Shown piece after piece: positions 1-64,000 of a stretch of 64,000 nucleotides of DNA. Positions within the stretch are counted from its first letter, which is position 1. Each line of letters begins with the position of its first letter. Under the pieces are notes generated by a model. The model searched no databases and was not told where the DNA came from. It saw only the letters and a list, made by a program, of their open reading frames with translations. Source of the DNA: Methylocystaceae bacterium (GTDB lineage Bacteria; Bacillota; Syntrophomonadia; Syntrophomonadales; JBLNAA01); contig JBLNAA010000008.1 of assembly GCA_050259135.1 (NCBI GenBank), forward strand, positions 5,931 to 69,930. Reading direction: 5' to 3'. Made by a program: the position numbers and the translations under genes.

Positions 1-36
1 TAGGGAGCCACCAAGTTATTCCTCCCCATGGTTATC

Positions 37-648
37 TTACTCTGCGATTTTACCATCGGTGGTGTACACCCACTCCACCTTATCACCTGATTTTATCTTA
101 TATAAGCCACAGCCAACCCCCGGGGTTTCGCCATTAACTTGATAAAGCCATCCGCTCATCGGTCCCTGGTCAAACTCCTTCAGGCTGCCAATCCCAGTGA
201 TATAGGCCGCAGGTCCAAATCCACGATAATCCAGTGCAATACCCGATTGCGCAGCCGCCCGTTTGGTAACACTGAAAACACTTTCATCCTGGTTAATCGA
301 TAGTTCAGTAACAGAAAACAGCAGTTTCCCATCACCGCAAGCTGATACGGCAACCCCCTCAGCCTGCTTACCAGGAACCACCGGGGCAGCCTGAACAGTT
401 TTATCCTGCTCCTTTGGTTCTGTTTTTACCTCGACGGAGTCAGCTTTAACGTTCGGCTCAGTAACTGCCTCTTTAGTCTTGGCTACCGGATCTACCTCCG
501 TTTTCTGAGCCACAACAGCTGACTTTGATGGTAATTTAGCGATGTCCGGTTTGTTTGATTGACTGCATCCGATATTAAATGACAACAGAATCCCCAGCAT
601 TATAACGGTTATTAACCCGAGAATGGGTAACCTTAGTTTATACTTCAT
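37..648 (-). CDS. Secreted lipoprotein with C-terminal DUF4430 (transcobalamin beta-domain-like) domain
   Basis: N-terminal signal peptide with lipobox (LSFNIGC). Lys/Glu/Pro/Val-rich linker. C-terminal motif GPMSGWLYQVNGETPGVGCGLYKIKSGDKVEWVYT is typical of DUF4430. Starts 43 nt after the stop of the upstream gene, with RBS GGGAGG. Confidence 0.7.
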   Translation of the reverse strand: MKYKLRLPILGLITVIMLGILLSFNIGCSQSNKPDIAKLPSKSAVVAQKTEVDPVAKTKEAVTEPNVKADSVEVKTEPKEQDKTVQAAPVVPGKQAEGVAVSACGDGKLLFSVTELSINQDESVFSVTKRAAAQSGIALDYRGFGPAAYITGIGSLKEFDQGPMSGWLYQVNGETPGVGCGLYKIKSGDKVEWVYTTDGKIAE

Positions 649-691
649 ACAATTTTCGCCTCCCGTATCAGCGACCAGAGCAGTCCATTAC

Positions 692-2788
692 CTACTTTTT
701 GCTGAGTAAATCATACAGGCGGATCAAAATGGTAGCCGCCATTTCCCGGGTTACCTGCCCCCGGGGGTCAAATCGGTTGTCAGCACCCGTCATTAAACCG
801 CTGGCTGCTGCCTGTGAAATGGCCTGCCGGGCCTCAGGGTAGGCCAGGCTTATATCAAGAAAATCCTTTTGTCCGCTTTGCTGCTGGGGGTAAACTTTGG
901 CTAGAACCAAGGCTATTTCCTGCCGGCTTATAGCCCGGTCCGGTTCAAAGCTATCCCTGGAAGTACCGGTGATCCATCCTCGGTTGGCCGCTTCTGTGAC
1001 AGAATCATAATACCAATTTTTAGGCCTGACATCCTGGAACTGAATTACCCTGGGATTGGCTGCTGCCGGCAGATCCATTCTCATAAGCATGGCCATCAGC
1101 TCAGCCCGGGTTACAACCCGGTCGGGGGCAAAACACAGTGGCTGCAGAGTAACCCCTTTGATAATTCCCAGATCATATGCCTTTTTAACAGACATTTTAG
1201 CCCAGTCAGATATCCGGCCGGCATCAGCAAATTGCCCGGCAGTTGTTACAATGTGAGTATAAATTGGCGGCAGATGCTGTTGAAAACGCTGCCAGGCAAC
1301 CAAAGCCAGCAATGCTTGTTCTGAAGCGGTGGGATCAGAGGATCCGCCAGCAATATGAGCAAAACCGCCGTCAGGCTGCAGATATTGCAGCCAGCACCCA
1401 GTCAGGCTGCCCTTCGCTTTGGTAAATTGCGTATCCTCCGGTGAGATTCCCAGACTGCAAAGCGCCAGAATTACCTGGGACGAGCTTTCGCTGTTTTCAA
1501 TTCCGCTATTGGCATAACCGCCATCGGCAAGCTGTATCCCGGCTAACCATTTCAAGGCTTTTGCGGTTGCATTTTTTACTGTTTCCTGTTTTTGATAGGG
1601 TGCCAGGGCGGTCAAAGTCATAGCTGTAACATCAACATCACCAGCCATACCGTTGGCTAATCCCCAGGCCCCGTCAGAACGCTGTTCATTAAGCAGCCAG
1701 GTTATGATTTTATCACGATTCCAGAGTGAATTTTGCGGAGTATCAGCTCCACAGCTATCGAGCGCAATAAGTGCAAAAGCTACTCCGTTGGTTCCCTGCA
1801 TGGTTAAACGTTTATGACTGTAAATCTCGGCAATCAGGTTTCTTCCTTCGATAGACGCCGTATCGATCCCCAGCAGTCCGGCTATTATGGCCTGCCGTTC
1901 CAAATCAGTGACCCTTGGTGAACCGGGCCCGGCATTTTTAATAGCGGTTACTAAAGTTTTACCATACTGATCTACTGCCAGCTCATTGCAATACCACAGG
2001 CCCATCGCCCCCCAGTCAGTCAGGGGCTGAATGCTTTTGATATACTTTACAACACCCTCAACCTGGGCTGCCTTTAATTCCGTCTGGTTTATATTGACAA
2101 TCGGCGGCAAGAGCACAGCCTGGTCATCCTGCTCCACATAAAACCATTGTATTTCATCACCATCGGCCACTACTTTACTGCCGGCACCGGCACCGGGAAC
2201 CGAACCATTCAGCCGGTACTTCCAACCGCTGGTAGGGCCGTGGGCAAATTCTTCTTGGCCCCCGATGGCTGCCACATAGCCATTCCTAATTTCAAGAGAT
2301 ATTCCGTAGGTTGATGCCGCCTTCTGCAAAAGACTGAGAACGGTTGCTGTTCCCTGCCAGGTAATCGTTGTGGGCGGAAGTATTGATCCATCATAGCCGG
2401 TAATACTGATTTGAGCCTGTTTGGTTACCACCGGAGGTGCCCCCGGATTGGCTGGTTCGCTGCCGGTTATCGTCACTGGTATAGCTGCCGGGTTTAAATC
2501 TTGACTGTTGACCTGAATCTGATAACTTCCGGGAATTACTGGTATTACAAAACTGAACGAACCATCCTCATCGCTGACTCCCTGATTAATGTATACCCGC
2601 TGACTGGCACTGGTAACCTGTACACTGATCTGACTGTAGGGCTGGGCGGTTCCTGTTACCTGGATGTTTGACCCGGCAGCAGCAGCATTAACATCCGCTC
2701 CATAAACCGGAGACGTAACTGCCAATAATGTCCCAACCACCACTACAGCCAGCAGACAGATACCAAGTTTATAATGAATTCGGCACAT
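692..2788 (-). CDS. S-layer-anchored surface protein: signal peptide, Ig-like domain, DUF4430 domain, alpha/alpha-toroid (prenyltransferase/terpene-cyclase-like) repeats, three C-terminal SLH domains
   Basis: Signal peptide ends VYGADV. DUF4430 motif GPTSGWKYRLNGSVPGAGAGSKVVADGDEIQWFYV. Repeated SDGAWG / ADGGYA / PDGGFA motifs. Three SLH-like repeats (FADAGRISDWAKMSVKKAYDLGIIKG, FQDVRPKNWYYDSVTEAANRGWITG, FLDISLAYPEARQAISQAAASGLMTG). Confidence 0.75.
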   Translation of the reverse strand: MCRIHYKLGICLLAVVVVGTLLAVTSPVYGADVNAAAAGSNIQVTGTAQPYSQISVQVTSASQRVYINQGVSDEDGSFSFVIPVIPGSYQIQVNSQDLNPAAIPVTITGSEPANPGAPPVVTKQAQISITGYDGSILPPTTITWQGTATVLSLLQKAASTYGISLEIRNGYVAAIGGQEEFAHGPTSGWKYRLNGSVPGAGAGSKVVADGDEIQWFYVEQDDQAVLLPPIVNINQTELKAAQVEGVVKYIKSIQPLTDWGAMGLWYCNELAVDQYGKTLVTAIKNAGPGSPRVTDLERQAIIAGLLGIDTASIEGRNLIAEIYSHKRLTMQGTNGVAFALIALDSCGADTPQNSLWNRDKIITWLLNEQRSDGAWGLANGMAGDVDVTAMTLTALAPYQKQETVKNATAKALKWLAGIQLADGGYANSGIENSESSSQVILALCSLGISPEDTQFTKAKGSLTGCWLQYLQPDGGFAHIAGGSSDPTASEQALLALVAWQRFQQHLPPIYTHIVTTAGQFADAGRISDWAKMSVKKAYDLGIIKGVTLQPLCFAPDRVVTRAELMAMLMRMDLPAAANPRVIQFQDVRPKNWYYDSVTEAANRGWITGTSRDSFEPDRAISRQEIALVLAKVYPQQQSGQKDFLDISLAYPEARQAISQAAASGLMTGADNRFDPRGQVTREMAATILIRLYDLLSKK

Positions 2789-2802
2789 TCCAAGCTACCT
2801 CT

Positions 2803-4068
2803 CTAGTGGACTGGAATAACAGCTGGCGCACACAAGGGTGTCCGCTGCTGCCAGTTATCCCACACCATCACCTTTACCAGTGAACCTGCTGCAGCATTCA
2901 CCCCAAAACCCAGACCTACGTTATGATCTTCCCCGGCTGCCAGATTATATTGGCTGTAGCTGTAGGTTAGCATTTTCCCCTGGGGGTCATAGAGCGCTGC
3001 AATTACCAGATTATCCTGAGCAGCGGCAGTGGGGTTACAAATGGTTATGGTCAAATCACAATCCTGACCGCTGCTTAGCACCATTGGCGCATTTATTCTG
3101 ATCCAGGCTTGCGGGAGTTTACTGCGGTATTTAGAATAACCGGCAGTTAAATCAGCCAGGGCACAAAGTGCTGAACCGGTACTATTTAATCCCTGTTCAA
3201 TAAAACTGCCATCAGACTGCTGATGGGATAACAGGCCATCTACCAAAGATTTACCTGCTTTAGTCCAGTCGGCACTCTGGGGCGAGATGCCCCAGGCAGT
3301 TAGAGCCTCAATCACGGCAGCTGTGCTGTCCGGGCTGTCAGATCCCCAGCTCAGCAGAGCACCGGTTGCTGACTGCAGGTCGTCCTTTTTTAAAAAGGCC
3401 AGCGCTCGTTGTACAACATCACTCTCGATAGGTGTATGTCCTGCCAGCGCCAGTAAAGCGTGGGCAGTTGAATCAATATCATCGGCCGCCCCCGGGGAGT
3501 TTGGATCATTTACCCATTCGCAATAGGCACCGCTGGCGCGCTGCTTAGCCTTGATATATTCAATCGCGGCCGTGACATTGTAATTGGCTGGTGCGGCCGC
3601 ATAGTTGCAGTTGTACATGTCAAGGGCGATAACAGACCAAATGGTGTTGTTTAAAGAATCGGCACTGGTTGTAAAACAACCGCTGTTCACATCCTGTTTG
3701 CTTACCAGCAGTGCAACCAAATTGGTATCGCTCCCGTTTATCTGCACCTGGGTCGGATTTTCCCCCTTGGCCATTAAACCAATCATACTGTTAGCAATAC
3801 TGGCCGGCTGGGCGGTATCTGGTTCGGTCAGATTGACACTGCCGGCCAGGGGGTCGGCCTGGGAGCCCAGTGCAACCGCACACATCCAGGGGGAATAAAA
3901 GCTGTTTATACTTTCGGGATGCCCGCTGCAAAAGGCACGGGCTTTAACCCAGGCTTGATCAGTATCACTGGCTGTAGCTGCGTCTACAGTTCGCGGGCTG
4001 ATGGTAAGCAGAACTAATATAACCATCAGAAATACCCGGGTAATACTCGATTTACAGCAGATTAACAA
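2803..4068 (-). CDS. Secreted alpha/alpha-toroid (prenyltransferase/squalene-cyclase-like repeat) protein with C-terminal beta-rich domain
   Basis: TTG start preceded by AAAGGAGGA. Signal peptide. ASGAYC / SDGSF repeat motifs with LLAL/IEAL helices. First gene downstream of the cobalamin riboswitch. Confidence 0.65.
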   Translation of the reverse strand: MLICCKSSITRVFLMVILVLLTISPRTVDAATASDTDQAWVKARAFCSGHPESINSFYSPWMCAVALGSQADPLAGSVNLTEPDTAQPASIANSMIGLMAKGENPTQVQINGSDTNLVALLVSKQDVNSGCFTTSADSLNNTIWSVIALDMYNCNYAAAPANYNVTAAIEYIKAKQRASGAYCEWVNDPNSPGAADDIDSTAHALLALAGHTPIESDVVQRALAFLKKDDLQSATGALLSWGSDSPDSTAAVIEALTAWGISPQSADWTKAGKSLVDGLLSHQQSDGSFIEQGLNSTGSALCALADLTAGYSKYRSKLPQAWIRINAPMVLSSGQDCDLTITICNPTAAAQDNLVIAALYDPQGKMLTYSYSQYNLAAGEDHNVGLGFGVNAAAGSLVKVMVWDNWQQRTPLCAPAVIPVH

Positions 4069-4104
4069 TGAATATCCTCCTTTACCCTGGCACCCTCATT
4101 TCAT

Positions 4105-4138
4105 AGCAAAACCGCCTGCCCCATTGGGGGCAGGCGGT
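4105..4138 (-). terminator. Intrinsic terminator forming the expression platform of the cobalamin riboswitch
   Basis: Minus strand reads ACCGCCTGCCCCC-AAT-GGGGCAGGCGGT followed by TTTGCT. Lies between the B12 aptamer and the RBS of 2803..4068. Confidence 0.8.
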
Positions 4139-4189
4139 ATCAAGACAACCTTAATTGCCTCCCCTCCTCATCCCGGAAGCTGAGTAATC

Positions 4190-4348
4190 TTATTCGGCAG
4201 CAGGCAGGTCTCCTGGCTCTCGTTCATTCTACAACCGCACCTTCCCGGACAGCTGTCCAGTGGTTTTAGGCGGATTCGTCCCGATTACAGTAGGGGATAA
4301 ACTGCAACGGCCTCTCACCGTTTTCCCTTTTACCCTGACCATTGTTAT
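4190..4348 (-). promoter_or_regulatory. Cobalamin (B12) riboswitch aptamer
   Basis: Minus strand contains GGTCAGGGTAAAAGGGAAAACGGTGAGAGGCC...CCCCTACTGTAA...ACCACTGG...GGGAAGG and the B12 box AGCCAGGAGACCTGCC (plus coordinates 4203-4218). These match the conserved core of the cobalamin riboswitch family. Confidence 0.9.
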
Positions 4349-4452
4349 ATGGGCAGGGATACCTGATACCGACTATGAAATTGCAGGTGCTGTGACTTTA
4401 TTAAAACTATACACCATTATGGCAATTATTACCACGATAGTTCCCAACCGGA

Positions 4453-5166
4453 TCAATTATAAAATTCTTCACCTGGCATCCGTGAATTATTAATCCGCAG
4501 GTAAACCCGATTAATTACCAGATAAAACGGTTTACCCAGCAGGAGACTGAATACGATGTTTCCGGCTGCGTGTAAAAGATCAAAAGGCAAACTGGTTAGG
4601 TAAGTGGCAGCAAAGGTTTTCCAGGAGTGAGGTTCAATAAAAGCCAGCCAGTGCCAGATGTTCATAACCCACCCAAATAAGATGCCAGCTGCTCCGGCCA
4701 AAATCACAAATGGCCACATTTTGAAGTCATCATTACGCCTGCCCATAACCCCTGCCAAAATCCCACATAATCCCCAGCAGGCCATCTGCCAGGGAGTCCA
4801 TGGTCCCTGCCCTAAGAAAAAGTTGGAAGCAAAACCATTTAAGGCACCAACCGCAAATCCTATAGCCGGCCCACCAACATAGCCGGTAATCATTACGATA
4901 AAAGTAGTCGGTTTAAACCCGGCTATGGGAGCAAATGCTACCCGGGTCATTGCTGCCATTGCCGCCATAGTGGCAACCAGGGCAATTATTCGGGCATCTA
5001 CGGTTCTTTTATTAGCAATCCGCAGCACTACCAGCCAGGCGCCAATGGCGCCCCCGGTAACCAACAGTCCCAGGCTGCTGTTAGTATTGTGAGAGCCAAA
5101 GATGAGACCGATGGCCAGCAAACCCAAGGTAACCGCTATAAGTGCTGCGTCACCTATTTTCGTCAT
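4453..5166 (-). CDS. ECF transporter substrate-specific (S) component, specificity unknown
   Basis: 237-aa polytopic membrane protein, Gly/Ala/Trp-rich. Starts 3 nt downstream of the ECF ATPase gene. The cobalamin link is contextual only. Confidence 0.6.
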   Translation of the reverse strand: MTKIGDAALIAVTLGLLAIGLIFGSHNTNSSLGLLVTGGAIGAWLVVLRIANKRTVDARIIALVATMAAMAAMTRVAFAPIAGFKPTTFIVMITGYVGGPAIGFAVGALNGFASNFFLGQGPWTPWQMACWGLCGILAGVMGRRNDDFKMWPFVILAGAAGILFGWVMNIWHWLAFIEPHSWKTFAATYLTSLPFDLLHAAGNIVFSLLLGKPFYLVINRVYLRINNSRMPGEEFYN

Positions 5167-5168
5167 AG

Positions 5169-6842
5169 CTAACTCCGTTCCAGATTTATTAATTTAGGTT
5201 GAGAACCCATTTCCCCTGCTAAGGCCGTTTGGGCCTCCCTGACCGTAATAATCCTTCCTCCCAACAGGCGGTTCACCTGAGGTGAATAAAAGGTGTGCCC
5301 GCTTATCATATGGCGGGTGATTCCCGGTCCAATTAACTCTCCCTGCTGGAGAAAAGCTGCCCGGTCGGCATACTCAGCAACAAACTCCAGGTCATGAGTA
5401 ATGAGTAAAATGGTGGTCCCCTCTCGCCGTATCGAACTGAGTATCGTACCCAGCTGTTCCTTAAACAATGGGTCAAGCCCCTGTGTAGGTTCGTCCAGAA
5501 TCAATACCCCTGGTTTGGATAGCAGCACACAAGTCAGTGCTGCCTTTTGCTGTTCGCCCCGGCTTAAATCACGGGGATACCTATCCTCAATGGATGTCAG
5601 GGAAAACCAATCGGATAACTGTTTAAGCCATTTTGAATCCGGGCTTCCCAGGTTTTTGATATTAAACTCTATCTCCTCTTTTACCGTGGCTAAAAAGAAG
5701 TACTGTCCCGTCTCCTGGGGTAAATAGCCGATTTGGTGGGCCAGTGATGATGCCTTTTGTCCCCTGATTGACCGCCCATCCAAGCAGATATCACCCTGGC
5801 TGGGTTTTAGCAATCCGGCAATATTTTTACCCAGGGTGCTCTTGCCGGAACCATTTGCTCCCATCAACGCAGTAATACTGCCAGACGGCAGGTTCAGGCT
5901 TACACCTCTTAAAACCGACGGACCTCCTGGATAGGCAAAGCCGAGTTTGTTTACCACCAGCCGGTTATTTAAGGTACTGGGGGATGGATCAATTGGATTC
6001 CTGTCCGGTAAGGGCATCGATACCCCTAACAATGGTCGGGCCTGCTTGACGGTCAAGGGGATTTTAGGACTACCCATTTGGGCAAACAAACGGGGTATTG
6101 GCGGAGCAAACGGACGTCCCTGCTGCACTGTCCATTGAACTGCTTCAATGGGAGCAGCATTATGGCTAATCCTCCCCTGATCTAAAAACACAACCCTATC
6201 CGCTAAATGATAGCATTGTTCCAATCGGTGCTCTGCAATTACAATCGTTATTCCATTTTCTTCATTCAGCCGACGCAAAAAATTAAATAGTTCCTCACTA
6301 GCCACCGGGTTAAGCCGGGAGGTAGGTTCATCAAGCAGCAGCAACTTTGGCTGCAGGGCCATTACCGCTGCTAATGCTGTTTTTTGCTTCTGCCCTCCTG
6401 ATAATTTGGCTGTGGACTGATCCAGCCAGGGAGTAAGCCCTAACATCTCGGCGGTTTCTGCCAGACGATTAAGGCCAATAGATGATGGTATACCCAGGTT
6501 CTCCAGGCCAAAGGCCAGCTCCTGTTGTACAGTGGTCATCACCAACTGACTTTCAGGATTTTCATATACCATTCCTACCATCTGCAGCAGCTCTTGACGG
6601 CTGATGGCTGCCAGCGACTTACCTGCCGCCTGTATAGCCCCACTCATTATTCCGCCATAGAAATCCGGTATCAAACGGCATAATGCCCGCAGAAGAGTAG
6701 TTTTGCCGCTTCCTGACCCTCCCACCAGCAGTACAATTTCACCTTCATTAATCTGCAGATTAATATTATTCAAGGCCAGGCGGCTGCTTTGCGGGTAGGT
6801 ATAGCTTAAATTGTCGATTTCCAGGAATGCCATAACCGCCAT
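5169..6842 (-). CDS. ECF transporter energy-coupling ATPase, fused double ABC domain (A-A')
   Basis: Two Walker A motifs (GGSGSGKTT, GANGSGKST). Two ABC signatures (LSGGQKQ, LSRGEQQ). Two Walker B motifs (LLLDEPT, LILDEPT). Confidence 0.9.
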   Translation of the reverse strand: MAVMAFLEIDNLSYTYPQSSRLALNNINLQINEGEIVLLVGGSGSGKTTLLRALCRLIPDFYGGIMSGAIQAAGKSLAAISRQELLQMVGMVYENPESQLVMTTVQQELAFGLENLGIPSSIGLNRLAETAEMLGLTPWLDQSTAKLSGGQKQKTALAAVMALQPKLLLLDEPTSRLNPVASEELFNFLRRLNEENGITIVIAEHRLEQCYHLADRVVFLDQGRISHNAAPIEAVQWTVQQGRPFAPPIPRLFAQMGSPKIPLTVKQARPLLGVSMPLPDRNPIDPSPSTLNNRLVVNKLGFAYPGGPSVLRGVSLNLPSGSITALMGANGSGKSTLGKNIAGLLKPSQGDICLDGRSIRGQKASSLAHQIGYLPQETGQYFFLATVKEEIEFNIKNLGSPDSKWLKQLSDWFSLTSIEDRYPRDLSRGEQQKAALTCVLLSKPGVLILDEPTQGLDPLFKEQLGTILSSIRREGTTILLITHDLEFVAEYADRAAFLQQGELIGPGITRHMISGHTFYSPQVNRLLGGRIITVREAQTALAGEMGSQPKLINLERS

Positions 6843-7720
6843 CCTTCACTTAATAGTGCCGGGTAACTGAACAGCAGGAAAAGTCCTGCACTGAACAAAA
6901 TTATTTCCGGAGATATGATCGGCCCTACTACCGGATAAAAGGCAAAGCCGCTTTCGCCGCGGATCACAAAAATAACACCCAACAGAAGGCCGATAACAGT
7001 AACCCCCGTGAATAGATAATCCTTAAAGGTCCAAAAGCCCTGGTAGTAGATGGTCCGCACACCTGCTCCAAACCCGCGTGTCTGCATTGATTCCGCCACC
7101 TGCATGGAATCCTCCAGGCTGTCTTGTAATAAAGCCATGACCAGGGGCCGACTATGCTGTAGCCGTTTGATTACACCATTCTCTTCCCAATCTAACCCCC
7201 GACAGCTTTGAATCTCTTTAATTTCTGCCAACTTCTTAATCATCAGTGGTAATTGATGTAACGTAAGAGCCAGCACCAACGCCGTATTGCCTCCCCAGCG
7301 GGCCAGGTACTTTACTATTTGATCGGGGTTCACCAGATATGTAAAGAGGCAGAAAGCCTCTAAAATTATGAGCAGCCGGGCTGACATAACCAATGCGAAA
7401 ACCAAAACTTCCAGGGTGAATATTATGTCTTGGTCCCCGAGTGTCGGGACGCCGAAAATTATCGTACTGCCATTATGATTAAAAAACAGGTTGATCAGGA
7501 TGATAAAAGCACCCATAGTCAACCCAATACTCAGGTAGCCACGGGCAGGCCTTTCTAAACCAGCCAGGTGTAAATCGGCATAAGCAGCCAGTAATAGTGC
7601 TCCCAGCAGCATCGGCTGGGTCAGCATAAATGACAGTGCTACTAATACCAAAGTCATCAGGGTGAGGCTGAAAGGATGTAAGTGGTATAATACCTGATCA
7701 TGATGTTGATATAAATACAC
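6806..7720 (-). CDS. ECF transporter transmembrane (T) component, CbiQ/EcfT family
   Basis: GTG start after RBS AAAGAGGAAA. Polytopic membrane protein with the coupling-helix motif ESMQTRGFG. Overlaps the ATPase gene. Confidence 0.8.
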   Translation of the reverse strand: MYLYQHHDQVLYHLHPFSLTLMTLVLVALSFMLTQPMLLGALLLAAYADLHLAGLERPARGYLSIGLTMGAFIILINLFFNHNGSTIIFGVPTLGDQDIIFTLEVLVFALVMSARLLIILEAFCLFTYLVNPDQIVKYLARWGGNTALVLALTLHQLPLMIKKLAEIKEIQSCRGLDWEENGVIKRLQHSRPLVMALLQDSLEDSMQVAESMQTRGFGAGVRTIYYQGFWTFKDYLFTGVTVIGLLLGVIFVIRGESGFAFYPVVGPIISPEIILFSAGLFLLFSYPALLSEGWRLWHSWKSTI

Positions 7721-7740
7721 TTCTCGTTTCCTCTTTGGTT

Positions 7741-7760
7741 GATCGGCTTTATAGCCGATC
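7741..7760. promoter_or_regulatory. Perfect 8-4-8 palindrome in the leader of the ECF operon
   Basis: GATCGGCT-TTAT-AGCCGATC, about 20 nt upstream of the T-component start. Function unknown (operator or 5'UTR hairpin). Confidence 0.3.
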
Positions 7761-7802
7761 TCTTCGTATTATAAATCATAGATCGAATTACTTGATAACA
7801 AA

Positions 7803-7846
7803 CAAAAACCAAAAGGACCACCTGGTAATACACCGGCAGTCCTTTA
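7803..7846 (-). terminator. Intrinsic terminator after ftsZ
   Basis: Minus strand reads AAAGGACTGCCGG...CCAGGTGGTCCTTTT followed by GGTTTTTGTTTG. Confidence 0.6.
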
Positions 7847-7868
7847 TGATCTTATTTTAAATTTAAAC

Positions 7869-8930
7869 CTATTTTCCCCTTCTTAAAAAAGCAGGGATCT
7901 CTAAATCCTGGGTATTTAAGAAGGAATTAGTCCGCTCTAAAGAAGGAAGTCCCCGTGAATCACCAAGGTCACGGTCAAAACCGGTTGCAATCACCGTAAC
8001 CCTTACCTCACTATCCAGGGTAGTATCAATAACTGCACCAAAAATAATATTGGCATCGGGATCAGCTGCCTGAGCAATTATCTCAGCTGCTTCATTGACC
8101 TCAAATAGTGTCAGGTTAGCATCACCAGTAATATTAAACAATACTCCGCGGGCACCTTCAATTGAAGTTTCCAGCAGTGGACTGGAAATGGCGCCCCGGG
8201 CTGCTTCTGCCGCCCGGTTTTCACCGCCGGCTACCCCAATACCCATAAGAGCAGAACCTGTTTCCTGCATAATGGTTTTAACATCAGCGAAGTCACAGTT
8301 GATCAGGCCGGGAACGGAGATAAGATCTGAGATACCCTGTACCCCCTGGCGCAGGACATCATCAGCAGTACGAAAAGCCTCATTGATGGAAGTGTTTTTA
8401 TCTACTACCTGCAGCAGGCGATCATTGGGAATAGTAATCAGGCTGTCAACCTTAGCCTTTAGGTCACCGATACCTTTACCCGCCTGATCTCTGCGTTTTT
8501 TACCTTCAAACAGGAATGGCCGGGTAACAACTCCCACCGTAAGGGCACCCATTTCTTTGGCTACCTCAGCAATAACCGGGGCAGCGCCAGTTCCGGTGCC
8601 ACCGCCCATACCGGCAGTTACGAAAACCATATCAGCCCCTTGCAGAGCCTTTTTAATGTCATCACGGCTCTCTTCGGCTGCCTTTTTCCCTACCTCAGGG
8701 TTAGCACCCGCGCCCAACCCCTTGGTCAGTTTCTCCCCGATCTGGATTTTGCGGTCCGCCCGCGAAATGTATAATGCCTGGGCGTCAGTGTTTACCGCAA
8801 TAAACTCGACCCCTTTTAGTCCAGCGTCGATCATGCGGTTAATGGCATTATTACCGCCGCCACCCACGCCAATAACCTTTATGTCCGCCAATTGATGCAT
8901 TTCCATATCAAACTCCAACACGCGGCCCAA
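7869..8930 (-). CDS. ftsZ: Cell division GTPase FtsZ
   Basis: [13 protein letters not shown] and [13 protein letters not shown] tubulin signature motifs. The start may be the in-frame GTG at 8921, which is better spaced from GGAGGG. Confidence 0.97.
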
Positions 8931-28173: not shown

Positions 28174-28370
28174 AAAAATAAAACCCCCACCGGACCGTGC
28201 CAACCGATTGTTTTGAACCTGCTCGCTTGCAGGTGGGTGCCTTCCTGAGTGCTTTTAGCTTCCCCTTCCCAAGAGGGGCCTGCTAGCCACACCCAGAGAA
28301 TCAGGCTCCCGATGTTTTGGTGTTGGGCCAAAACGTAATCGGCATATCACGTGTTCAGCAGGGATATTTA
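28174..28370 (-). ncRNA. ssrS: 6S RNA candidate (about 190 nt)
   Basis: Non-coding region immediately downstream of aspS. From memory, bsrA occupies this position in B. subtilis.
- Rod-like fold with a 24-bp interrupted closing stem: CCCUGCUG/CGGUGGGG, CGUG/CACG, GCCGAUU/AAUCGGU, GUUUU/AAAAC.
- Large central bubble: a 19-nt 5' strand, and a 3' strand carrying the small hairpin ACCUGC-AAGCGA-GCAGGU followed by UC.
- Inner stem GGGAGCC-UGA / UCA-GGAA-GGCACCC and an apical hairpin CCCCU…AGGGG.
- U-tract at the 3' end. Confidence 0.65.
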
Positions 28371-54028: not shown

Positions 54029-55246
54029 TTATTTCCCATTGCCGTTGACTGGATGAATCGGCAGAGACTTGAAGTCTATCGGTGCATCGGCTCCCGGCAG
54101 AGGCAGAACCGGAACCGTAAGTTCAAATTTACCGGCGGCGATCCATGATTTCAGGATTTCTGCAACTTTCCGCGCCCGCGGGTAACTGGACATCGGGGTA
54201 GTAGGTATTTCTTTACCCTGAATAGTAACTTTCCCGGATTTGAGGTCACGGTAATTGACATGGCCCAAATCCATCTTTTTATTATAGGGATATTGTTCAC
54301 TGTAATCAGTTACCGGGGCCATAATATCTTCATCCTTTACCGCCGTGTAAAGCAGCATTTCTTCATCGAGTATGGGAATAGGAACACCAATTCCCACTAT
54401 CATAGATACCCCATATCCCAGGAAACTTCCACCGACCAGCCATTCCGGGCTCATCTGTTTCAGATCGCCGATTAATGACAAGGTTCCGGAACCGGATTTG
54501 GGGACCCCATTTTCACTGCGCTCCACATTAGGATGGTGTTGGGTTCCATGCCAGGCTACATAGCCTACGCCGCCGCCCAGGAAGATACGGGTCCCCACAC
54601 CAATAGTCCGATAATGAGGGTCGTTCAGCAGCGGTGACAATTGACCGGACGTTGAGTAGCCGGCGTTTCCCAACCGGGGTTTTAATATACCCATATAGGT
54701 GTAAAGCGTTTTATCCCCCAGATTAACGGCACAGGCATAATTTTGATAGGCATTACGCGGATTGAACAATATAGCTTCGTTGATTTCCTCCAGGGTTATG
54801 GTTGTTTCAATATGCTTGCGCGGATAGCAGTCAGTTCCGTAACCTTCGGCTTCGAAACGGATAGTTTTGCCTGCTACCAGGTCATGGATGACATGGGCGC
54901 CGCCATAGGCGAAACGGCCAGGATGCACTTTATTCTCCGGATCATTTTCCGGAAGCGCAGTGGCACCCAGGTAGGCATCAACCGCAGCAATGCCGCCATA
55001 GGCTTCGACCCCGTTCAGCCAAACCTTACCCATCCGCATCCGCGGCGTGGTATGGCCAAAATTAAGAAAAACACCGGAAGAACACATGGGGCCAAAGGTA
55101 CCCGTGGTTACTACATCGATATCATGGGCTGCCTGGGCAACGCCCTTTTCTTCCACAATTTTAATAACTTCTTCAGCAGTAACAACTACTGCTCTCCCAG
55201 TCCTGATTTTTTCGTTGATTTCTTCGTAAGTCTTGGTGACTGCCAT
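54029..55246 (-). CDS. COG1900 (DUF39) homocysteine biosynthesis protein
   Basis: 405 aa. The call rests on family recognition from the overall sequence character and on the conserved partnership with NIL-ferredoxin and COG2122 genes. No search was run. Confidence 0.6.
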   Translation of the reverse strand: MAVTKTYEEINEKIRTGRAVVVTAEEVIKIVEEKGVAQAAHDIDVVTTGTFGPMCSSGVFLNFGHTTPRMRMGKVWLNGVEAYGGIAAVDAYLGATALPENDPENKVHPGRFAYGGAHVIHDLVAGKTIRFEAEGYGTDCYPRKHIETTITLEEINEAILFNPRNAYQNYACAVNLGDKTLYTYMGILKPRLGNAGYSTSGQLSPLLNDPHYRTIGVGTRIFLGGGVGYVAWHGTQHHPNVERSENGVPKSGSGTLSLIGDLKQMSPEWLVGGSFLGYGVSMIVGIGVPIPILDEEMLLYTAVKDEDIMAPVTDYSEQYPYNKKMDLGHVNYRDLKSGKVTIQGKEIPTTPMSSYPRARKVAEILKSWIAAGKFELTVPVLPLPGADAPIDFKSLPIHPVNGNGK

Positions 55247-55261: not shown

Positions 55262-57757
55262 TTACTGGTTACCCATCAAATTGCGGGCTTTTACCGCGGC
55301 ATCCCGTGCATCACGCGAATAAGCATCGGCACCGATTTCAGCGGCATATTCGTCAGTGAGTACGGCACCACCTACCATTATTTTGACTCGCAGGTCCTGC
55401 TCACGAACCAGCGCAATTATTTCTGCCATTCGCGGCATGGTGGTGGTCATTAACGCTGAAAGACCGATAATATCTGCCTTTTCCTTCCGGGCAGTTTCCA
55501 CAATGGCAGCTGCCGGTACATCCTTACCCAGGTCGATCACCCGAAAACCGTAATTCTCCATCATGACTGCAACAATATTTTTACCTATATCATGAATGTC
55601 GCCCTGGACAGTGGCTAATATCACAGTTCCGATGTAAGTTTGTCCTCCTTCAGCTAACCGGGGCCGCAGGTGGTTAAAAGCAGTTTTCATGGTCTCGGCG
55701 CTGCGCATCAATTGCGGCAGGAAATATTCTTTCCGATCATAGCGCCGACCCACCTCCTCAATAGCTGGTATCAGATGCCGGTTAACCAAATCAATCGCAC
55801 TTGTTCCCTTATTTAGCTCCTGATCCAGTAATTCCGTTACCTTATTTTGATCACCGGTTACCACGGCCTGATATACACCACTAATTTCTGCTGTTTCCGG
55901 TTTCTCTGCCAATGCAGGTTTAGCTGCTGGGGCTTTCACCGGGCTGCCAGCTACCAGGTCCGGAATATTGCAGTGCTGGCATATGGGTGAACGGGAAACC
56001 GCTTTTTCGGTTAACTTTAACCCATCTCGATAACAATCAATATAGCCGGCTGCATAAGCATCCCGGTTTAACAAAACCCCAGCGGCTCTGGTTACCTCCT
56101 GCATCCGCTCATCGAAAGGATTCATGATCGGCAGATCCAACCCGGAAGACCAGGCCATAGCCAGGTAAGCTGAGTTTAATATTTCCCGGGCTGGTAACCC
56201 GTGTGATACATTGGATACTCCCAGGACCGTACCTACTCCCAGTTCCGCTTTTATAGCAGTGATGGTCTTTAACGTCTCCATCACCTGGTCCTGTTCAGCG
56301 CTGGCCGTTTTAACCAGGCCATCCAGGTAGATGTCAACATCCCGCAGGCCATAATGCCTGGCCCGCTGGTAAATCTTACGGGCAACCTGCATTCTGCCCT
56401 CAGTATCATTGGGAATACCGTTTTCATCCAGGCACAGACCAAGGACGGCAGCACCATATTTCTTGGCCAACGGCAAAATGGTATCAAGTGCCTTGGTTTC
56501 ACCAGTTGTCGAGTTAATCAAAGCCCGGCCGACAAACCCCTTAAGACCTGCCTCCAGTGCTGCCGGGTTGGTGGTATCCAAAGATAAAGGTACTGTCACC
56601 GTACTCTGCAGCATTTCTACCGCCTGCTGCATAGCCGCGGGTTCGTCAATACCCGGGACCCCCATATTCACATCCAATACGGGGGCTCCTGCTGCCACCT
56701 GTTTGCGAGCTTCTTCCAGCACCATCCCCATCTGACCGGCTTTAATTTCTGCCGCCAGCTTCTTCCGGGCAGTGGGATTGATCCTTTCACCAATATATTT
56801 AAGATTTCCCTGATCAATAAAGATCGAACTCGTTCTTGAGGCTAAAGCGCGATGATTTTTAACCTGCCGTTTAACCGGCGGCAATCCTTTAAGCATTTGT
56901 GCAATTGCCTTAATATGCTGAGGGGTACTGCCGCAGCAGCCGCCAATAATATTGGCCCCCGCTTCCCGTAAACGCAGCGCCCATTCCGCCATAAAGTCAG
57001 GACTGTCAGGGAAAACCGTCTGGCCATCCACTAAGCGGGGAAGCCCGGCATTAGGTTCTACAGAAATATAACAATTGGTATACTGGCCCATTTGCTCAAT
57101 TAACGGGCATAATTCGGCAGCCCCTCCGGAACAGTTAGCTCCAATAGCTAATGGTGACAATGCCTCCAGGATCACTGCCGCCGTTACCGGATCGGTGCCC
57201 ATCATGGTTCTCCCGCCTTCTTCAAAGGTCAAATGAGCCAGTATAGGAAGCTGACAGCTGTCATGCGCTGCAATCACTGCTGCTCTCAGTTCACCAATAT
57301 CAGTCATGGTTTCAATGGAAATAATATCGGCGCCCGCCTCAGCGGCGGCACTGATTTGTTCTTTAAATGCCAGGTACAAATCATCAAAATCTACCTGCCC
57401 CATCGGCTTAAGCAACTGGCCAGTAGGCCCAATTGAAACCGCCACCCAACCCTGGCTCCCGACTGCACGGCGGGCAATCCTAACTGCTTCGGCATTGATT
57501 TCCCTGACCCGCTCAGCCAGACCGTACTCACTTAATTTAAAGCGGTTTCCGCCAAAAGTATTGGTTTGAATAATATCAGAGCCGGCTTCCACATACTGCC
57601 GATGAATATCCTCCAATACCTCCGGGTGCTCCATACCAAAGAGTTCCGGACATTCCCCCGGCATCAGCCCGTTTTGCTGCAGCATGGTCCCCATAGCCCC
57701 ATCGAGTATCAGAATTCTTTCCTCTAAAGCCGCCAGCAGTGTCTGCACCTGTAACAC
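55262..57757 (-). CDS. metH: Cobalamin-dependent methionine synthase, short form lacking the AdoMet reactivation domain
   Basis: Homocysteine S-methyltransferase domain (GGCCGSTP), pterin-binding domain, B12-binding domain (DIHDIGKN = DxHxxG; SALMTT). 831 aa, ending right after the B12 domain. GTG start. Confidence 0.9.
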   Translation of the reverse strand: MLQVQTLLAALEERILILDGAMGTMLQQNGLMPGECPELFGMEHPEVLEDIHRQYVEAGSDIIQTNTFGGNRFKLSEYGLAERVREINAEAVRIARRAVGSQGWVAVSIGPTGQLLKPMGQVDFDDLYLAFKEQISAAAEAGADIISIETMTDIGELRAAVIAAHDSCQLPILAHLTFEEGGRTMMGTDPVTAAVILEALSPLAIGANCSGGAAELCPLIEQMGQYTNCYISVEPNAGLPRLVDGQTVFPDSPDFMAEWALRLREAGANIIGGCCGSTPQHIKAIAQMLKGLPPVKRQVKNHRALASRTSSIFIDQGNLKYIGERINPTARKKLAAEIKAGQMGMVLEEARKQVAAGAPVLDVNMGVPGIDEPAAMQQAVEMLQSTVTVPLSLDTTNPAALEAGLKGFVGRALINSTTGETKALDTILPLAKKYGAAVLGLCLDENGIPNDTEGRMQVARKIYQRARHYGLRDVDIYLDGLVKTASAEQDQVMETLKTITAIKAELGVGTVLGVSNVSHGLPAREILNSAYLAMAWSSGLDLPIMNPFDERMQEVTRAAGVLLNRDAYAAGYIDCYRDGLKLTEKAVSRSPICQHCNIPDLVAGSPVKAPAAKPALAEKPETAEISGVYQAVVTGDQNKVTELLDQELNKGTSAIDLVNRHLIPAIEEVGRRYDRKEYFLPQLMRSAETMKTAFNHLRPRLAEGGQTYIGTVILATVQGDIHDIGKNIVAVMMENYGFRVIDLGKDVPAAAIVETARKEKADIIGLSALMTTTMPRMAEIIALVREQDLRVKIMVGGAVLTDEYAAEIGADAYSRDARDAAVKARNLMGNQ

Positions 57758-57802: not shown

Positions 57803-57827
57803 CAGATATCCGTATCAGGTCATCCCC

Positions 57828-57926
57828 CTTATCTCCCAGGATAAATCCCGCAGGAATTGGCACCATTCCCAGATTTGGGCGGTTGCCGGGCTTCATCGGG
57901 CCAGTCCCTCCACCACTCTAGATAAG
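57828..57926 (-). promoter_or_regulatory. SAM-I (S-box) riboswitch aptamer
   Basis: Minus strand reads CTTATCTAGAGTGGTGGAGGGACTGGCCCGATGAAGCCCGGCAACC…GGTGCCAATTCCTGC…GAGATAAG. This matches the S-box consensus almost position for position. Confidence 0.93.
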
Positions 57927-57996
57927 ATAGTAATACCGTATTTAGTTATATTAATGAAAAAGATATCATTAGGTTCTAATTAATGTCAACTGGCAA

Positions 57997-63914: not shown

Positions 63915-64000
63915 TCCTGGCAACGGCCTACTCTCCCACAAATGCAGTACCATCGGCGCTGGAGAGCTTAACTGCCGTGTTCGGTATGGGAACGGGTGTG
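63915..64000 (-). rRNA. rrf: 5S ribosomal RNA, 3' portion (truncated by the window end)
   Basis: Minus strand reads CACACCCGTTCCCATACCGAACACGGCAGTTAAGCTCTCCAGCGCCGATGGTACTGCATTTGTGGGAGAGTAGGCCGTTGCCAGG. This matches bacterial 5S rRNA closely. Confidence 0.95.

Follow-up and report, generated by a model that had tools for sequence, protein, structure and literature searches.

Surface-exposed, high-affinity capture of corrinoids and their delivery to a transporter are known from Bacteroides BtuG and BtuH, whose loci are under the control of a B12 riboswitch; BtuG is a beta-propeller lipoprotein that caps BtuB, an outer-membrane TonB-dependent transporter. For Gram-positive bacteria, surface scavenging of B12 or its precursors has been a computational prediction since 2007, when Burroughs, Balaji, Iyer and Aravind (Biol Direct 2:4, PMC1796856) gave examples from Desulfotomaculum, Moorella and Bacillus, and thus the idea of B12 capture at the surface is not new. 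A literature search found no biochemical follow-up on B12 to this prediction. An earlier note on the DNA studied here knew of no experimentally characterised SLH-anchored system, but the kind of system itself had already been predicted. The only relative studied by experiment, Lsa1836-1840 of Lactobacillus sakei, was assigned to heme uptake by means of a deletion mutant and docking (Verplaetse et al., bioRxiv 10.1101/864751), and ECF-CbrT transports both cobalamin and cobinamide (Santos et al. 2018, PMC5997447). The alpha and beta domains of transcobalamin (TC) assemble on cobalamin when they are expressed apart, which gives a precedent for split-domain binding, and the isolated beta domain binds CNCbl and Cbi (PMC5599065).

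The locus compared with these systems here lies in a window of 64,000 nucleotides, the whole stretch of DNA that was analysed, and consists of three minus-strand genes, with products called P1, P2 and P3, which follow a cobalamin riboswitch and neighbor the genes of an ECF transporter (Table 1). We believe, with a probability of roughly 0.7, that P1-P3 form the accessory half, repressed by B12, of a system devoted to corrinoid uptake in a monoderm organism of the Bacillota type that bears an S-layer, and the surface corrinoid-capture interpretation put forward in the earlier note is supported by the present analysis.

Table 1. Annotated features of the three-gene locus, its leader and the adjacent ECF genes, in order along the minus strand.
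Feature	Position	Strand	Basis
ECF T component, CbiQ family	6806-7720	(-)	Pfam CbiQ 56.4 bits, cut-off 25
Fused ECF A-A' ATPase, 557 aa, two ABC domains	5169-6842	(-)	NCBIfam ECF_ATPase_1 and ECF_ATPase_2, each 343 bits (cut-offs 315 and 330)
ECF S component, CbrT-like	4453-5166	(-)	Pfam ECF_trnsprt and DUF6580; PDB sequence match
Cobalamin riboswitch aptamer RF00174, B12 box included	4186-4381	(-)	Rfam cmscan
Candidate anti-terminator segment GGGGAGGC	4157-4164	(-)	Fold of nascent RNA
Intrinsic terminator of expression platform	4103-4138	(-)	Pattern scan and minimum-free-energy fold
Ribosome-binding site AAAGGAGG	4076-4083	(-)	Read from sequence
P1, 421 aa: signal peptide, alpha/alpha toroid, C-terminal beta-sandwich	2803-4068	(-)	ORF, Pfam, AlphaFold2, Foldseek
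P2, 698 aa: signal peptide, Ig-like, DUF4430/SLBB, toroid, three SLH	692-2788	(-)	Pfam, AlphaFold2
P3, 203 aa: signal/lipoprotein-like N-terminus, linker, DUF4430/SLBB	37-648	(-)	Pfam

The riboswitch matched the RF00174 Cobalamin model over its full length (model positions 1-189) with 105 bits, the gathering score being 31.5 (E 3e-25, cmscan), and AGCCAGGAGACCUGCC of the window riboswitch aligned with the model consensus. It is followed by a hairpin at 4111-4138 (-), with a stem of 12 pairs, 10 of them G-C, a 4-nt loop and the U-tract TTTTGCTAT, which was the top terminator-like site found within positions 1-8000 by the pattern scan. Among 26 loci with a riboswitch, the window included, 22 have a comparable hairpin and U-run between the aptamer and the first gene. 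In a fold of the nascent RNA taken at a stage when the 3' half of the terminator has yet to be transcribed, GGGGAGGC may base-pair with the 5' side of the terminator stem, at about 4126-4135, which makes it a candidate anti-terminator. The ribosome-binding site stands 7 nt ahead of the TTG start of P1 at 4068, and the three genes are separated by gaps of 14 and 43 nt. The canonical minus-strand B12 riboswitch, the GC hairpin with its U-tract before the first gene, the ribosome-binding site with the TTG start and the tight packing of the genes had all been described in the earlier note and were confirmed, but the end given there, 4348, truncates the aptamer at its 5' end by about 33 nt.

At the N-terminus of all three products, a basic stretch precedes a hydrophobic core of 12 residues (hydropathy 2.8-3.4), in agreement with the signal peptides previously proposed for them, and no further membrane segment was found in the sequences past the N-terminus. 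Confident AlphaFold2 models were obtained for P1 and P2, and Foldseek was run with these whole-chain models. P1, one of a conserved family of about 20 proteins, has a toroid at about residues 33-309 and an Ig/CBM-like beta-sandwich at 323-420 (pLDDT 89, pTM 0.86), and has no anchor of its own. It exceeded the Pfam cut-off of SQHop_cyclase_C slightly (27.9 against 26.1 bits), and its Foldseek matches were squalene-hopene cyclase, drimenyl-diphosphate synthase, complement TED domains and Ig-like sandwich domains. P2 (pLDDT 87) comprises an Ig-like sandwich (33-107), a DUF4430/SLBB beta-grasp domain modelled as a beta/alpha domain (122-218), an alpha/alpha toroid (240-503) and three SLH repeats (about 528-697). 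Pfam scored its DUF4430 domain with 53.6 bits (cut-off 23.8), the three SLH repeats with 72.6 bits and the toroid families barely over their cut-offs, while Foldseek matched the SLH part to that of B. anthracis Sap (3pyw, TM 0.79) and the toroid to prenyltransferase beta subunits. P3 carries Cys28 in its N-terminus, then some 80 residues of linker rich in Lys, Pro and Glu and, at 115-198, a DUF4430/SLBB domain (67.7 bits in Pfam). The domain composition noted earlier for P2 was reproduced in full, that of P1 held for the toroid but was incomplete with respect to the C-terminal sandwich of about 100 residues, and the description of P3 as a lipoprotein applied to its linker, its DUF4430 domain and a lipoprotein-like N-terminus, but its lipobox, LSFNIG-C28, is non-canonical with Asn at -3. 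Small DUF4430 proteins of related loci carry canonical lipoboxes.

The three proteins had been thought to rebuild a transcobalamin-like architecture, of which the beta-domain part was supported, and the toroid part as to its class of fold. Alignment of the DUF4430 profile with that of transcobalamin, intrinsic factor and haptocorrin by hhalign gave a probability of 95.5% (E 1.3e-8, TC residues 329-407), a precomputed PF14478 match is present on some TCN2 orthologues, and we conclude from this profile similarity that DUF4430 and the beta domain of transcobalamin are homologous. In comparison, hhalign of the toroid with the TC alpha domain reached a probability of 7.9% (P 0.0044), so that the toroid was not specifically tied to that domain, and the tie between them is one of fold class only. 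Transcobalamin was absent from the top 50 Foldseek matches for either whole-chain model, a toroid profile search of the PDB returned squalene-hopene cyclase (E 4e-11) and no TC, and a Pfam search found no match to the transcobalamin family PF01122 in the window proteins. The toroids thus bear a greater resemblance to terpene cyclases and prenyltransferases than to transcobalamin.

Of the four outcomes set down in the earlier note as refutations of the corrinoid interpretation, two were checked computationally, namely a lack of similarity to cobalamin carriers and a general lack of association of homologous operons with B12 riboswitches or B12 genes, and both checks spoke for the interpretation. 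Among the P1-family loci, surveyed in 22 species-representative genomes, one had lost its 5' end, and all 21 assessable loci had RF00174 directly upstream on the same strand (94-116 bits). Of 8 loci of the P2 type that are more distant, 4 also have the riboswitch and 4 lack it (L024, L025, L026 and L031), giving 25 of 29 assessable loci in total. Because riboswitch-positive loci come mostly from one family, Syntrophomonadaceae, the 21 cases are not independent, and the 4 distant loci with no riboswitch indicate that the wider family is not necessarily B12-specific. In the relatives, the gene after the P1-like gene encodes Ig, DUF4430 and SLH domains, followed in L005 and L011 by a lipoprotein DUF4430 gene and then by ECF T and A genes. 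A single chain with toroid, DUF4430 and SLH domains, in the alpha-then-beta order of transcobalamin, is encoded in L012, L013, L016, L017, L021, L022 and L023, although SLH was not seen in L023, where the ORF ends at the locus edge. In L028, the fusion protein P0003 unites a toroid like that of P1 (43% identity), DUF4430, a toroid like that of P2 and SLH, and the next gene encodes a small DUF4430 protein that is 53% identical to P3.

Clusters of the relatives usually contain ECF T and A-A' genes and often the S gene as well, a linkage that is conserved in many loci and that often falls within one operon under the riboswitch, as in L005, L011, L012, L022 and L029. More distant toroid/DUF4430 genes, from Ruminococcus, Bacillus, Ruminiclostridium and metagenomes, also adjoin genes for CbiQ-type T, fused A-A' and S components. 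The only PDB sequence match of the S component in the window was L. delbrueckii CbrT (6FNP chain A, E 1.4e-12, residues 59-220). The neighboring ECF transporter pointed out earlier is indeed present, with a CbrT-like S component. However, its genes (4453-7720) lie on the same strand as the riboswitch and upstream of it, outside its control, as they also do in L002, and therefore co-regulation of binder and transporter is not enforced by this switch. The presence of MetH with two B12-binding domains at 55262-57757 indicates that the organism is a B12 user.

We propose that, at high intracellular cobalamin, the bound aptamer would allow the 4111-4138 terminator to form and transcription would end ahead of P1, and that scarcity of B12 would result in read-through and expression of P1, P2 and P3, all of which are predicted to be exported. 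Through its three SLH repeats P2 would bind to the secondary cell-wall polymer, P3 is probably a membrane-tethered lipoprotein on a long flexible linker, and P1, which has no anchor, is probably retained through its C-terminal beta-sandwich or its partners. In the manner of transcobalamin, an alpha/alpha toroid and a beta-grasp domain of the DUF4430/SLBB kind may clamp the corrinoid between them, with the two halves of each clamp on different polypeptides that would assemble around the ligand. Fusion proteins in the relatives suggest the pairing of the P1 toroid with the P2 DUF4430 domain and of the P2 toroid with the P3 DUF4430 domain. The adjacent transporter (T, fused A-A' and S) would then receive the ligand at its CbrT-like S component for ATP-driven import.

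The same apparatus might instead serve another tetrapyrrole, either heme or a corrinoid that is incomplete (cobinamide or cobyric acid, for instance), with the riboswitch merely reporting B12 status, which we consider unlikely. The parts of L. sakei Lsa1836-1840, as described in that preprint, are the same and are assigned to heme (bioRxiv 10.1101/864751), and half of the 8 distant loci have no riboswitch; its occurrence in 25 of 29 assessable loci nevertheless speaks for a corrinoid in this clade at least, as does the likeness of the S component to CbrT, since hemin is no competitor for transport by ECF-CbrT (PMC5997447). In L025, the single riboswitch-less locus that was checked, there was no Fur-box-like site above chance. 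Because cobinamide is bound by haptocorrin and by the isolated TC beta domain, corrinoid precursors are plausible ligands, but the version with precursors belongs to the main explanation as a special case and is no true rival to it. Corrinoids could also be bound for purposes other than uptake, namely sequestration or storage at the surface against competitors, reception, or supply of cofactor to an extracellular enzyme. The position of the riboswitch between binder and ECF genes makes independent regulation possible in the window, SLBB domains are fused to extracellular enzymes in Syntrophomonas (Burroughs et al., PMC1796856), and P1, being anchorless, could leave the cell. This explanation appears improbable in view of the linkage to ECF T, A-A' and S genes that is kept in many loci, often in one riboswitch-controlled operon, and induction at low B12, as would follow from the OFF logic of the riboswitch and its terminator, fits scavenging for the organism's own use.

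It is very improbable that the toroids are not carriers at all but extracellular enzymes similar to terpene cyclases or prenyltransferases, protease traps similar to alpha2-macroglobulin/TED, or B12-regulated binders of wall glycans. In sequence and fold the toroids match squalene-hopene cyclase, drimenyl-diphosphate synthase, prenyltransferase beta subunits and complement thioester domains best, which points in this direction, but enzyme equivalog models scored 22-27 bits against cut-offs of 322-851, and the DxDD motif of class II cyclases is degenerate (DIDS in P1 and DVDV in P2). In addition, no CxEQ thioester motif was found in the P1 or P2 sequence, each toroid is single where cyclases have a second barrel, and the constant pairing or fusion with DUF4430, the B12 riboswitch and the linkage to a CbrT-type ECF transporter would be left unexplained. 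Uptake of corrinoids by P1-P3 together with the ECF transporter is thus our preferred explanation, and Burroughs et al. (PMC1796856) had arrived at this function independently by prediction.

Among the known systems, the proteins of Burroughs et al. (PMC1796856) share with the window proteins a predicted surface or exported location, SLBB (now Pfam DUF4430) and alpha/alpha toroid domains that can stand in both orders, additional Ig-like domains, another SLBB paralogue encoded in the operon and CbiO/CbiQ-type transporter genes. In contrast, that paper mentions neither riboswitches (the word is absent from its text) nor SLH anchoring, and describes neither two toroids and two SLBB domains split over three genes nor a P1-type toroid with a C-terminal beta-sandwich. 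The L. sakei operon, likened here by the description of its parts in the accessible part of the preprint (bioRxiv 10.1101/864751), is similar in having a split alpha/beta carrier beside a dedicated ECF transporter, with S, fused A-A', T and exported beta-like and alpha-like proteins, but it is assigned to heme, has one alpha and one beta protein instead of three proteins with two of each domain, and an N-terminal export signal is the sole localisation feature given there for its proteins. ECF-CbrT (PMC5997447, 6FNP) has a sequence relative of the window S component together with T and A components; however, L. delbrueckii uses a shared ECF module for which no extracellular binding protein is described, and the window module is dedicated, with a fused A-A' ATPase and attached genes for exported binders.

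The role proposed for P1-P3 would be like that of BtuG/BtuH by analogy alone, since the fold of BtuG is unrelated and the window has neither a propeller nor a TonB-dependent transporter. Transcobalamin, intrinsic factor and haptocorrin (PF01122; 2BB5, 2PMV, 4KKI) likewise combine an alpha/alpha toroid with a small beta-grasp domain, in an alpha-then-beta order that is kept in the fused relatives. In the window, by contrast, these parts are on separate chains or, in P2, in beta-then-alpha order, the toroid is not detectably nearer to the TC alpha domain than to terpene cyclases, and the proteins are predicted to be anchored to wall or membrane, where they would feed a prokaryotic ECF importer instead of receptor-mediated endocytosis.

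The cobalamin riboswitch proposed for the minus strand ahead of the genes P1, P2 and P3 was recovered with Rfam as a complete aptamer, the RF00174 match spanning model positions 1-189 and including a B12 box, GAGCCAGGAGACCUGCC, that fits the consensus. The upper coordinate of 4348 given to this element in the earlier note was too low and left out about 33 nt of the aptamer, since the Rfam aptamer reaches 4381. A hairpin with a U-tract had also been placed 3′ of the riboswitch, and we found it as a G-C-rich terminator stem 43 nt ahead of the start codon, giving the leader an expression platform that is also the strongest terminator-like site of the first 8 kb. The RBS and TTG start of the first gene follow as described, and the three genes are tightly packed, with intergenic gaps of 14 and 43 nt exactly as had been stated. 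Folding of the nascent leader points to a candidate anti-terminator, GGGGAGGC (4157-4164), whose pairing partner would be the 5′ half of the terminator and which is presumed to be coupled to the aptamer. The switching logic, in which the B12-bound aptamer would lead to termination, is taken from the usual behaviour of the riboswitch class. Among the riboswitch-bearing loci compared here, 22 of 26 (the window counted) have a terminator-like hairpin between the aptamer and the first gene.

Positions of the riboswitch leader, the three downstream genes and the ECF transporter genes in the window
Feature	Position	Strand	Description
ECF T component, CbiQ	6806-7720	minus	Pfam CbiQ, 56.4 bits
Fused A-A′ ATPase	5169-6842	minus	557 aa; two ABC domains
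ECF S component	4453-5166	minus	237 aa; Pfam ECF_trnsprt and DUF6580
Cobalamin riboswitch aptamer, RF00174	4186-4381	minus	Rfam 105 bits (gathering score 31.5), E 3e-25
Terminator hairpin (stem)	4111-4138	minus	12 pairs, 10 of them G-C; 4-nt loop, then U-tract
RBS	4076-4083	minus	AAAGGAGG
TTG start of P1	4068	minus	
P1	2803-4068	minus	421 aa ORF
P2	692-2788	minus	698 aa ORF
P3	37-648	minus	203 aa ORF

In all three products the N-terminus is basic and then runs into a strongly hydrophobic core, with no membrane segment further along, which agrees with the signal peptides previously assigned to them. P1 matched Pfam SQHop_cyclase_C with 27.9 bits against a cut-off of 26.1, and its AlphaFold2 model, like that of P2 confident and built from homologue alignments (pLDDT 89, pTM 0.86), places a toroid at residues 33-309 and, C-terminal to it, a beta-sandwich at 323-420. 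P1 is thus the alpha/alpha-toroid protein that had been described, with an additional domain that had been missed, and Foldseek matched this domain to Ig/CBM-like sandwiches in the PDB. Two homologues in the P1-family alignment, P0110 and P0111, carry SLH repeats in place of the sandwich; we suggest that the sandwich of P1 is an alternative docking module. For P2, Pfam and AlphaFold2 agree on the proposed series of an Ig-like domain, DUF4430, a toroid and three SLH repeats: DUF4430 (PF14478) scored 53.6 bits (cut-off 23.8) and SLH 72.6 bits in three stretches, Prenyltrans, SQHop_cyclase_N and SQHop_cyclase_C were barely over their cut-offs, and the N-terminus gave weak matches to Ig-like families, while the model (pLDDT 87) assigns residues 33-107 to a beta-sandwich, 122-218 to a small beta/alpha domain, 240-503 to a helical toroid and 528-697 to SLH helices. 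The SLH part also matched the B. anthracis Sap SLH domain in sequence (E 1e-10) and 3pyw by Foldseek (TM 0.79).

P3 contains DUF4430 as claimed (67.7 bits, cut-off 23.8), but its assignment as a lipoprotein holds less firmly, the lipobox being non-canonical with Cys28 in LSFNIG-C and an Asn at -3 that is unusual at this position. Lipid tethering of P3 is nevertheless likely, because small DUF4430 proteins of related loci carry the canonical lipoboxes LLTITGC, LFSLGGC, LLSVAGC and GLLAGC. The exact P1-P3 proteins are recorded from one metagenome-assembled genome only, and their closest homologues are 57% (P1) and 46% (P2) identical. A Logan contig overlapping the window start (L001 2895-3050, covering window 1-36 and beyond) has a long-range inverted repeat just past the P3 stop codon, ATGGGGAGGAATAAC ... 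GTTATTCCTCCCCAT, whose arms are separated by about 125 nt. It lacks a U-tract, was not matched by Rfam, and may represent a repeat element or a structured RNA. A 76-aa ORF after P3 in the same contig (L001 2915-3142) was rejected as it looks non-coding, and Rfam was blank there.

The ECF transporter noted next to these genes is present, and its S component is CbrT-like: the only PDB chain it matched in sequence was 6FNP_A (E 1.4e-12, residues 59-220), the S component CbrT through which Lactobacillus delbrueckii takes up vitamin B12 (PMC5997447). ECF-CbrT carries cobalamin and cobinamide, and hemin does not compete (PMC5997447). The A-A′ protein scored 343 bits with both NCBIfam ECF_ATPase_1 and ECF_ATPase_2 (cut-offs 315 and 330), and ftsZ and ftsA lie upstream of the ECF genes. 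The T, A-A′ and S genes are not under the control of the riboswitch, however, since they lie upstream of it on the same strand, and Rfam detected no second cobalamin riboswitch in the 64,000-nt window. From the S stop codon (4453) up to the aptamer, a pattern scan found no terminator-like site, and the sole promoter-like match in this interval is weak and was picked by eye. The binder genes may be transcribed from this weak promoter of their own, or from ECF transcripts that read through into them, in which case the riboswitch could serve as an internal attenuator that uncouples binder from transporter expression. In many other relatives the ECF genes are downstream of the binders, inside the riboswitch-controlled operon.

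The organism uses B12, as the window encodes a cobalamin-dependent methionine synthase of 831 aa (55262-57757) with S-methyl_trans, Pterin_bind and two B12-binding domains. A SAM riboswitch (57826-57928, 91 bits) lies ahead of this gene and an HcyBio homocysteine-biosynthesis protein (54029-55246) comes after it. Ordinary housekeeping RNAs are also present, namely a 6S RNA (28180-28367, minus strand, 103.9 bits) and the 3′ part of a 5S rRNA at the window edge (63915-64000). NCBI labels the source of the window's proteins as a 'Methylocystaceae bacterium' MAG, and L002 and L007, loci of BioProject PRJNA951521, bear the labels Methylocystaceae and Deltaproteobacteria, respectively. The content is Bacillota-like, with SLH proteins, a SAM-I riboswitch, FtsQ/DivIB, DUF881 and Syntrophomonadaceae relatives; the labels look wrong, and the source organism looks like a member of the Bacillota near Syntrophomonadaceae.

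When the P1-family alignment was scanned against one genome per GTDB species, 22 loci were obtained, mostly from Syntrophomonadaceae, Thermosyntropha and Gelria. In 21 of the 22, Rfam placed RF00174 directly ahead of the gene and on its strand (94-116 bits). These 21 cases are not independent events because the loci cluster phylogenetically; the remaining locus, L016, is truncated at the 5′ end of the gene and was left out of the riboswitch count. The linkage is nonetheless old, since P1-family proteins are only 30-44% identical. Eight more loci (L024-L031) were reached via P2 homologues, four of which have the riboswitch (L027, L028, L029 and L030), while it is absent from L024 (Ruminococcus), L025 (Bacillus luti), L026 (Ruminiclostridium) and L031 (a metagenome contig). 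The anticipated association of toroid and DUF4430 genes with B12 riboswitches therefore holds in all 21 assessable P1-family loci and in 25 of 29 assessable loci overall. Substrate or regulation may differ in the riboswitch-less branch. The upstream gap of the Bacillus locus is 685 nt long and contains no recognised element; the purine riboswitch of this locus goes with the neighbouring PNP gene. In six of the eight P2-type loci the toroid/DUF4430 genes adjoin genes for a CbiQ-type T, a fused A-A′ and an S component, the exceptions being L030 and L028, whose contig stops just past the binder genes.

The usual order is the riboswitch, a P1-like toroid with C-terminal sandwich, and an Ig, DUF4430 and SLH protein, followed in most P1-family loci by a further DUF4430 protein and, in L005 and L011, by ECF T and A genes. 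Seven loci combine toroid, DUF4430 and SLH in one chain, in alpha-then-beta order (L012, L013, L016, L017, L021, L022 and L023; no SLH was detected in the last, whose ORF runs off the locus end). In L028, a single protein of 1116 aa, P0003, contains a P1-like toroid (43% identity over P1 residues 25-319), DUF4430, a P2-like toroid and SLH, and a P3-like gene (53% identity) comes after it. Such fusions serve as Rosetta-stone evidence for a joint function of P1, P2 and P3, and they suggest that the P1 toroid may pair with the DUF4430 domain of P2, leaving the P2 toroid for P3.

Third genes in L003-L022 form a second DUF4430 subfamily (for example L005 5705-6904, L012 3293-4414 and L013 7691-9145), about 320-480 aa long in these examples and 207 aa in L020, with a canonical lipobox in several examined members and the motif DWF.YVNG...GD.IWWDYH where P2 and P3 have SGW.Y.VNG...GD.VEW.YT. 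The 150-200 residues past its DUF4430 domain gave no Pfam match, and the window has no member of this subfamily. Toroid copy number varies among loci, as an extra downstream toroid gene is present in L006 (8856-10433), L010 (8925-10415) and L030 (5001-6545), where it has SLH repeats, and in L003 (4851-6314), where it has none.

A locus from a related species, L002, has the same order as the window (ftsZ, ECF T-A-S, riboswitch, toroid; 1195-4800), so the position of the riboswitch between transporter and binders is conserved in this lineage. Between the two, ftsZ is 98% identical in protein and 82% in DNA, the ECF T, A and S components are 58%, 66% and 68% identical and P1 44%, the surface protein evolving fastest. 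Replacement of the cassette at L002, considered because of the contrast between ftsZ (98%) and P1 (44%), was rejected: with ftsZ DNA only 82% identical, these are different species with unequal constraint on their genes.

The earlier note had read a transcobalamin-like architecture into the three proteins, with DUF4430 considered related to the beta domain of the transcobalamin, intrinsic factor and haptocorrin family (TC/IF/HC), and for this domain homology is supported. A profile of 39 bacterial DUF4430 domains from the loci aligned with a TC/IF/HC profile at 95.5% hhalign probability (E 1.3e-8, mature TC residues 329-407) and with TCN2 orthologues alone at 78.6%, and the P2 domain aligned to TC 336-425 (E 3.5e-4). 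Across its entire mature chain (residues 19-427) the human TCN2 query shows no difference from 7QBF, the intrinsic factor query differs from 2PMV by one residue, and haptocorrin residues 57-433 came from a printed alignment. Precomputed PF14478 matches also exist on some TCN2 orthologues, and the DUF4430 profile search of the PDB was weak (3u7z, E 0.028; 4kki beta domain, E 0.83). The tie between the toroids and the TC alpha domain did not stand to the same degree; we place them in the same fold class only, the link being weaker than that of the beta domain. With hhalign, P1 204-304 aligned on TC 142-235 with P 0.0044 (7.9% probability). The P1-family profile found terpene cyclases, SLH proteins and thioester proteins in the PDB and not TC; phmmer searches of the PDB with P1, P2 and P3 gave SLH proteins and squalene-hopene cyclase and no TC, IF or HC; and TC was absent from the top 50 PDB Foldseek matches of the whole-chain P1 and P2 models, lists dominated by multidomain complement proteins, cyclases and prenyltransferases. 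P1-P3 fall outside the eukaryotic carrier family, since none matched PF01122 in Pfam at E <= 0.01.

TC, IF and HC have the toroid and then the beta domain in a single chain, whereas in the window these are split (P1, P3) or reversed (P2); the TC order recurs in the seven fused relatives and in P0003. When expressed separately, the alpha and beta domains of TC come together on cobalamin, and TC-beta by itself can bind CNCbl and cobinamide (PMC5599065), which is a precedent for the split arrangement of the window. The same paper does not list the residues by which a corrinoid-contacting Trp of TC could be set beside the invariant Trp of DUF4430.

Taking these results together, we predict from sequence comparison, with a probability of roughly 0.7, that P1-P3 capture corrinoids at the cell surface and hand them over to the ECF importer, as the earlier note had proposed; riboswitch linkage, the CbrT-like S component and DUF4430 homology support this function. 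The toroids could instead be extracellular enzymes or protease traps, given Foldseek matches in the PDB to squalene-hopene cyclase, drimenyl-diphosphate synthase, prenyltransferase beta subunits and complement thioester domains. Several observations argue against this: NCBIfam equivalog scores are 19-27 bits against cut-offs of 322-851, the DxDD position of cyclases is degenerate (DIDS in P1, DVDV in P2), P1 and P2 are exported proteins with a single toroid each and not the two barrels of a cyclase, no CxEQ motif occurs in P1 or P2, the matches to C3, C4 and C5 have a TM of only 0.12-0.35, and the toroids are constantly partnered with DUF4430, ECF genes and the B12 riboswitch.

Heme is a rival substrate suggested by the Lactobacillus sakei Lsa1836-1840 operon, which has the same parts, namely S, fused A-A′ and T components with exported beta-like and alpha-like proteins (bioRxiv 10.1101/864751). 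It is possible for the riboswitch-less branch of the family, where, as a heme/iron test, Fur-box matches in the Bacillus locus were no better than chance; in the window's clade, corrinoids are indicated by the riboswitch and by the CbrT-like S component, and the preferred ligands may be complete cobamides or precursors such as cobinamide. Sequestration of B12 rather than its import is a possible role, but it fits less well with the conserved ECF linkage. 

Within the corrinoid-capture reading, we consider it possible, though rather unlikely, that P1-P3 form a relay across the Gram-positive envelope comparable to the Isd system, in which NEAT-domain proteins relay heme. Two transcobalamin-like units would assemble in trans, one from the P1 toroid and the DUF4430 domain of S-layer-anchored P2, the other from the P2 toroid and the DUF4430 domain of the membrane-tethered lipoprotein P3, and cobamides would travel from the outer wall to the CbrT-like S component. 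The riboswitch between transporter and binder genes would act as an internal attenuator, so that the core ECF importer would be expressed throughout and only B12 starvation would bring in the costly high-affinity capture layer. If so, split bacterial systems would be living examples of a modular ancestor from which animal transcobalamin arose via fusion and horizontal transfer.

In the usual description, ECF transporters operate without soluble binding proteins, and we know of no established mechanism for the capture of picomolar B12 through a thick Gram-positive wall. The window locus and its roughly 30 relatives provide clonable candidates for such a corrinoid-capture layer, comprising exported toroid and DUF4430 proteins, natural fusions that indicate which parts cooperate, and a B12 riboswitch as a regulatory signature pointing to the substrate. 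They bear on the heme-versus-B12 question raised by the L. sakei homologue and, because most relatives are Syntrophomonadaceae living beside cobamide-producing methanogens and acetogens, on cobamide sharing in syntrophic communities. We regard the locus as a well-supported experimental lead on substrate acquisition by ECF-type B12 transport and not as a new principle; a B12 specialist is unlikely to be surprised by a capture system. Our literature search found no published B12-binding measurement for any bacterial DUF4430 member, no near-universal riboswitch linkage of the P1-family clade, no SLH anchoring in toroid/SLBB-type B12 systems, no three-gene split layout with two toroids and two DUF4430 domains, and no riboswitch placed between transporter and binder genes; no paper was found that links SLH with riboswitch and cobalamin, or transcobalamin with ECF and riboswitch.

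BtuG and BtuH are well-studied surface binders of Bacteroides with a fold unrelated to that of the window proteins. The analogy drawn with them holds as a functional resemblance only: BtuG is a beta-propeller lipoprotein acting with outer-membrane BtuB, whereas the window proteins have only toroid, beta-grasp, Ig-like and SLH domains, and no TonB-dependent transporter gene adjoins the locus. The importer is predicted to be of the ECF-CbrT type, with a CbrT-related S component, a T component and two ATPase domains. The observation of the earlier note is confirmed and its functional inference supported, and the idea itself goes back to Burroughs, Balaji, Iyer and Aravind (2007), who predicted secreted or surface toroid and SLBB proteins to be Gram-positive B12 scavengers, in a system that includes a second paralogous SLBB protein and CbiO/CbiQ genes, and who had already published the homology of DUF4430 to the TC beta domain (PMC1796856). 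They also proposed the bacterial system as the source of animal transcobalamin (PMC1796856), a proposal on which the present loci bear, and the window locus is a variant of this computationally predicted B12-scavenging kind.
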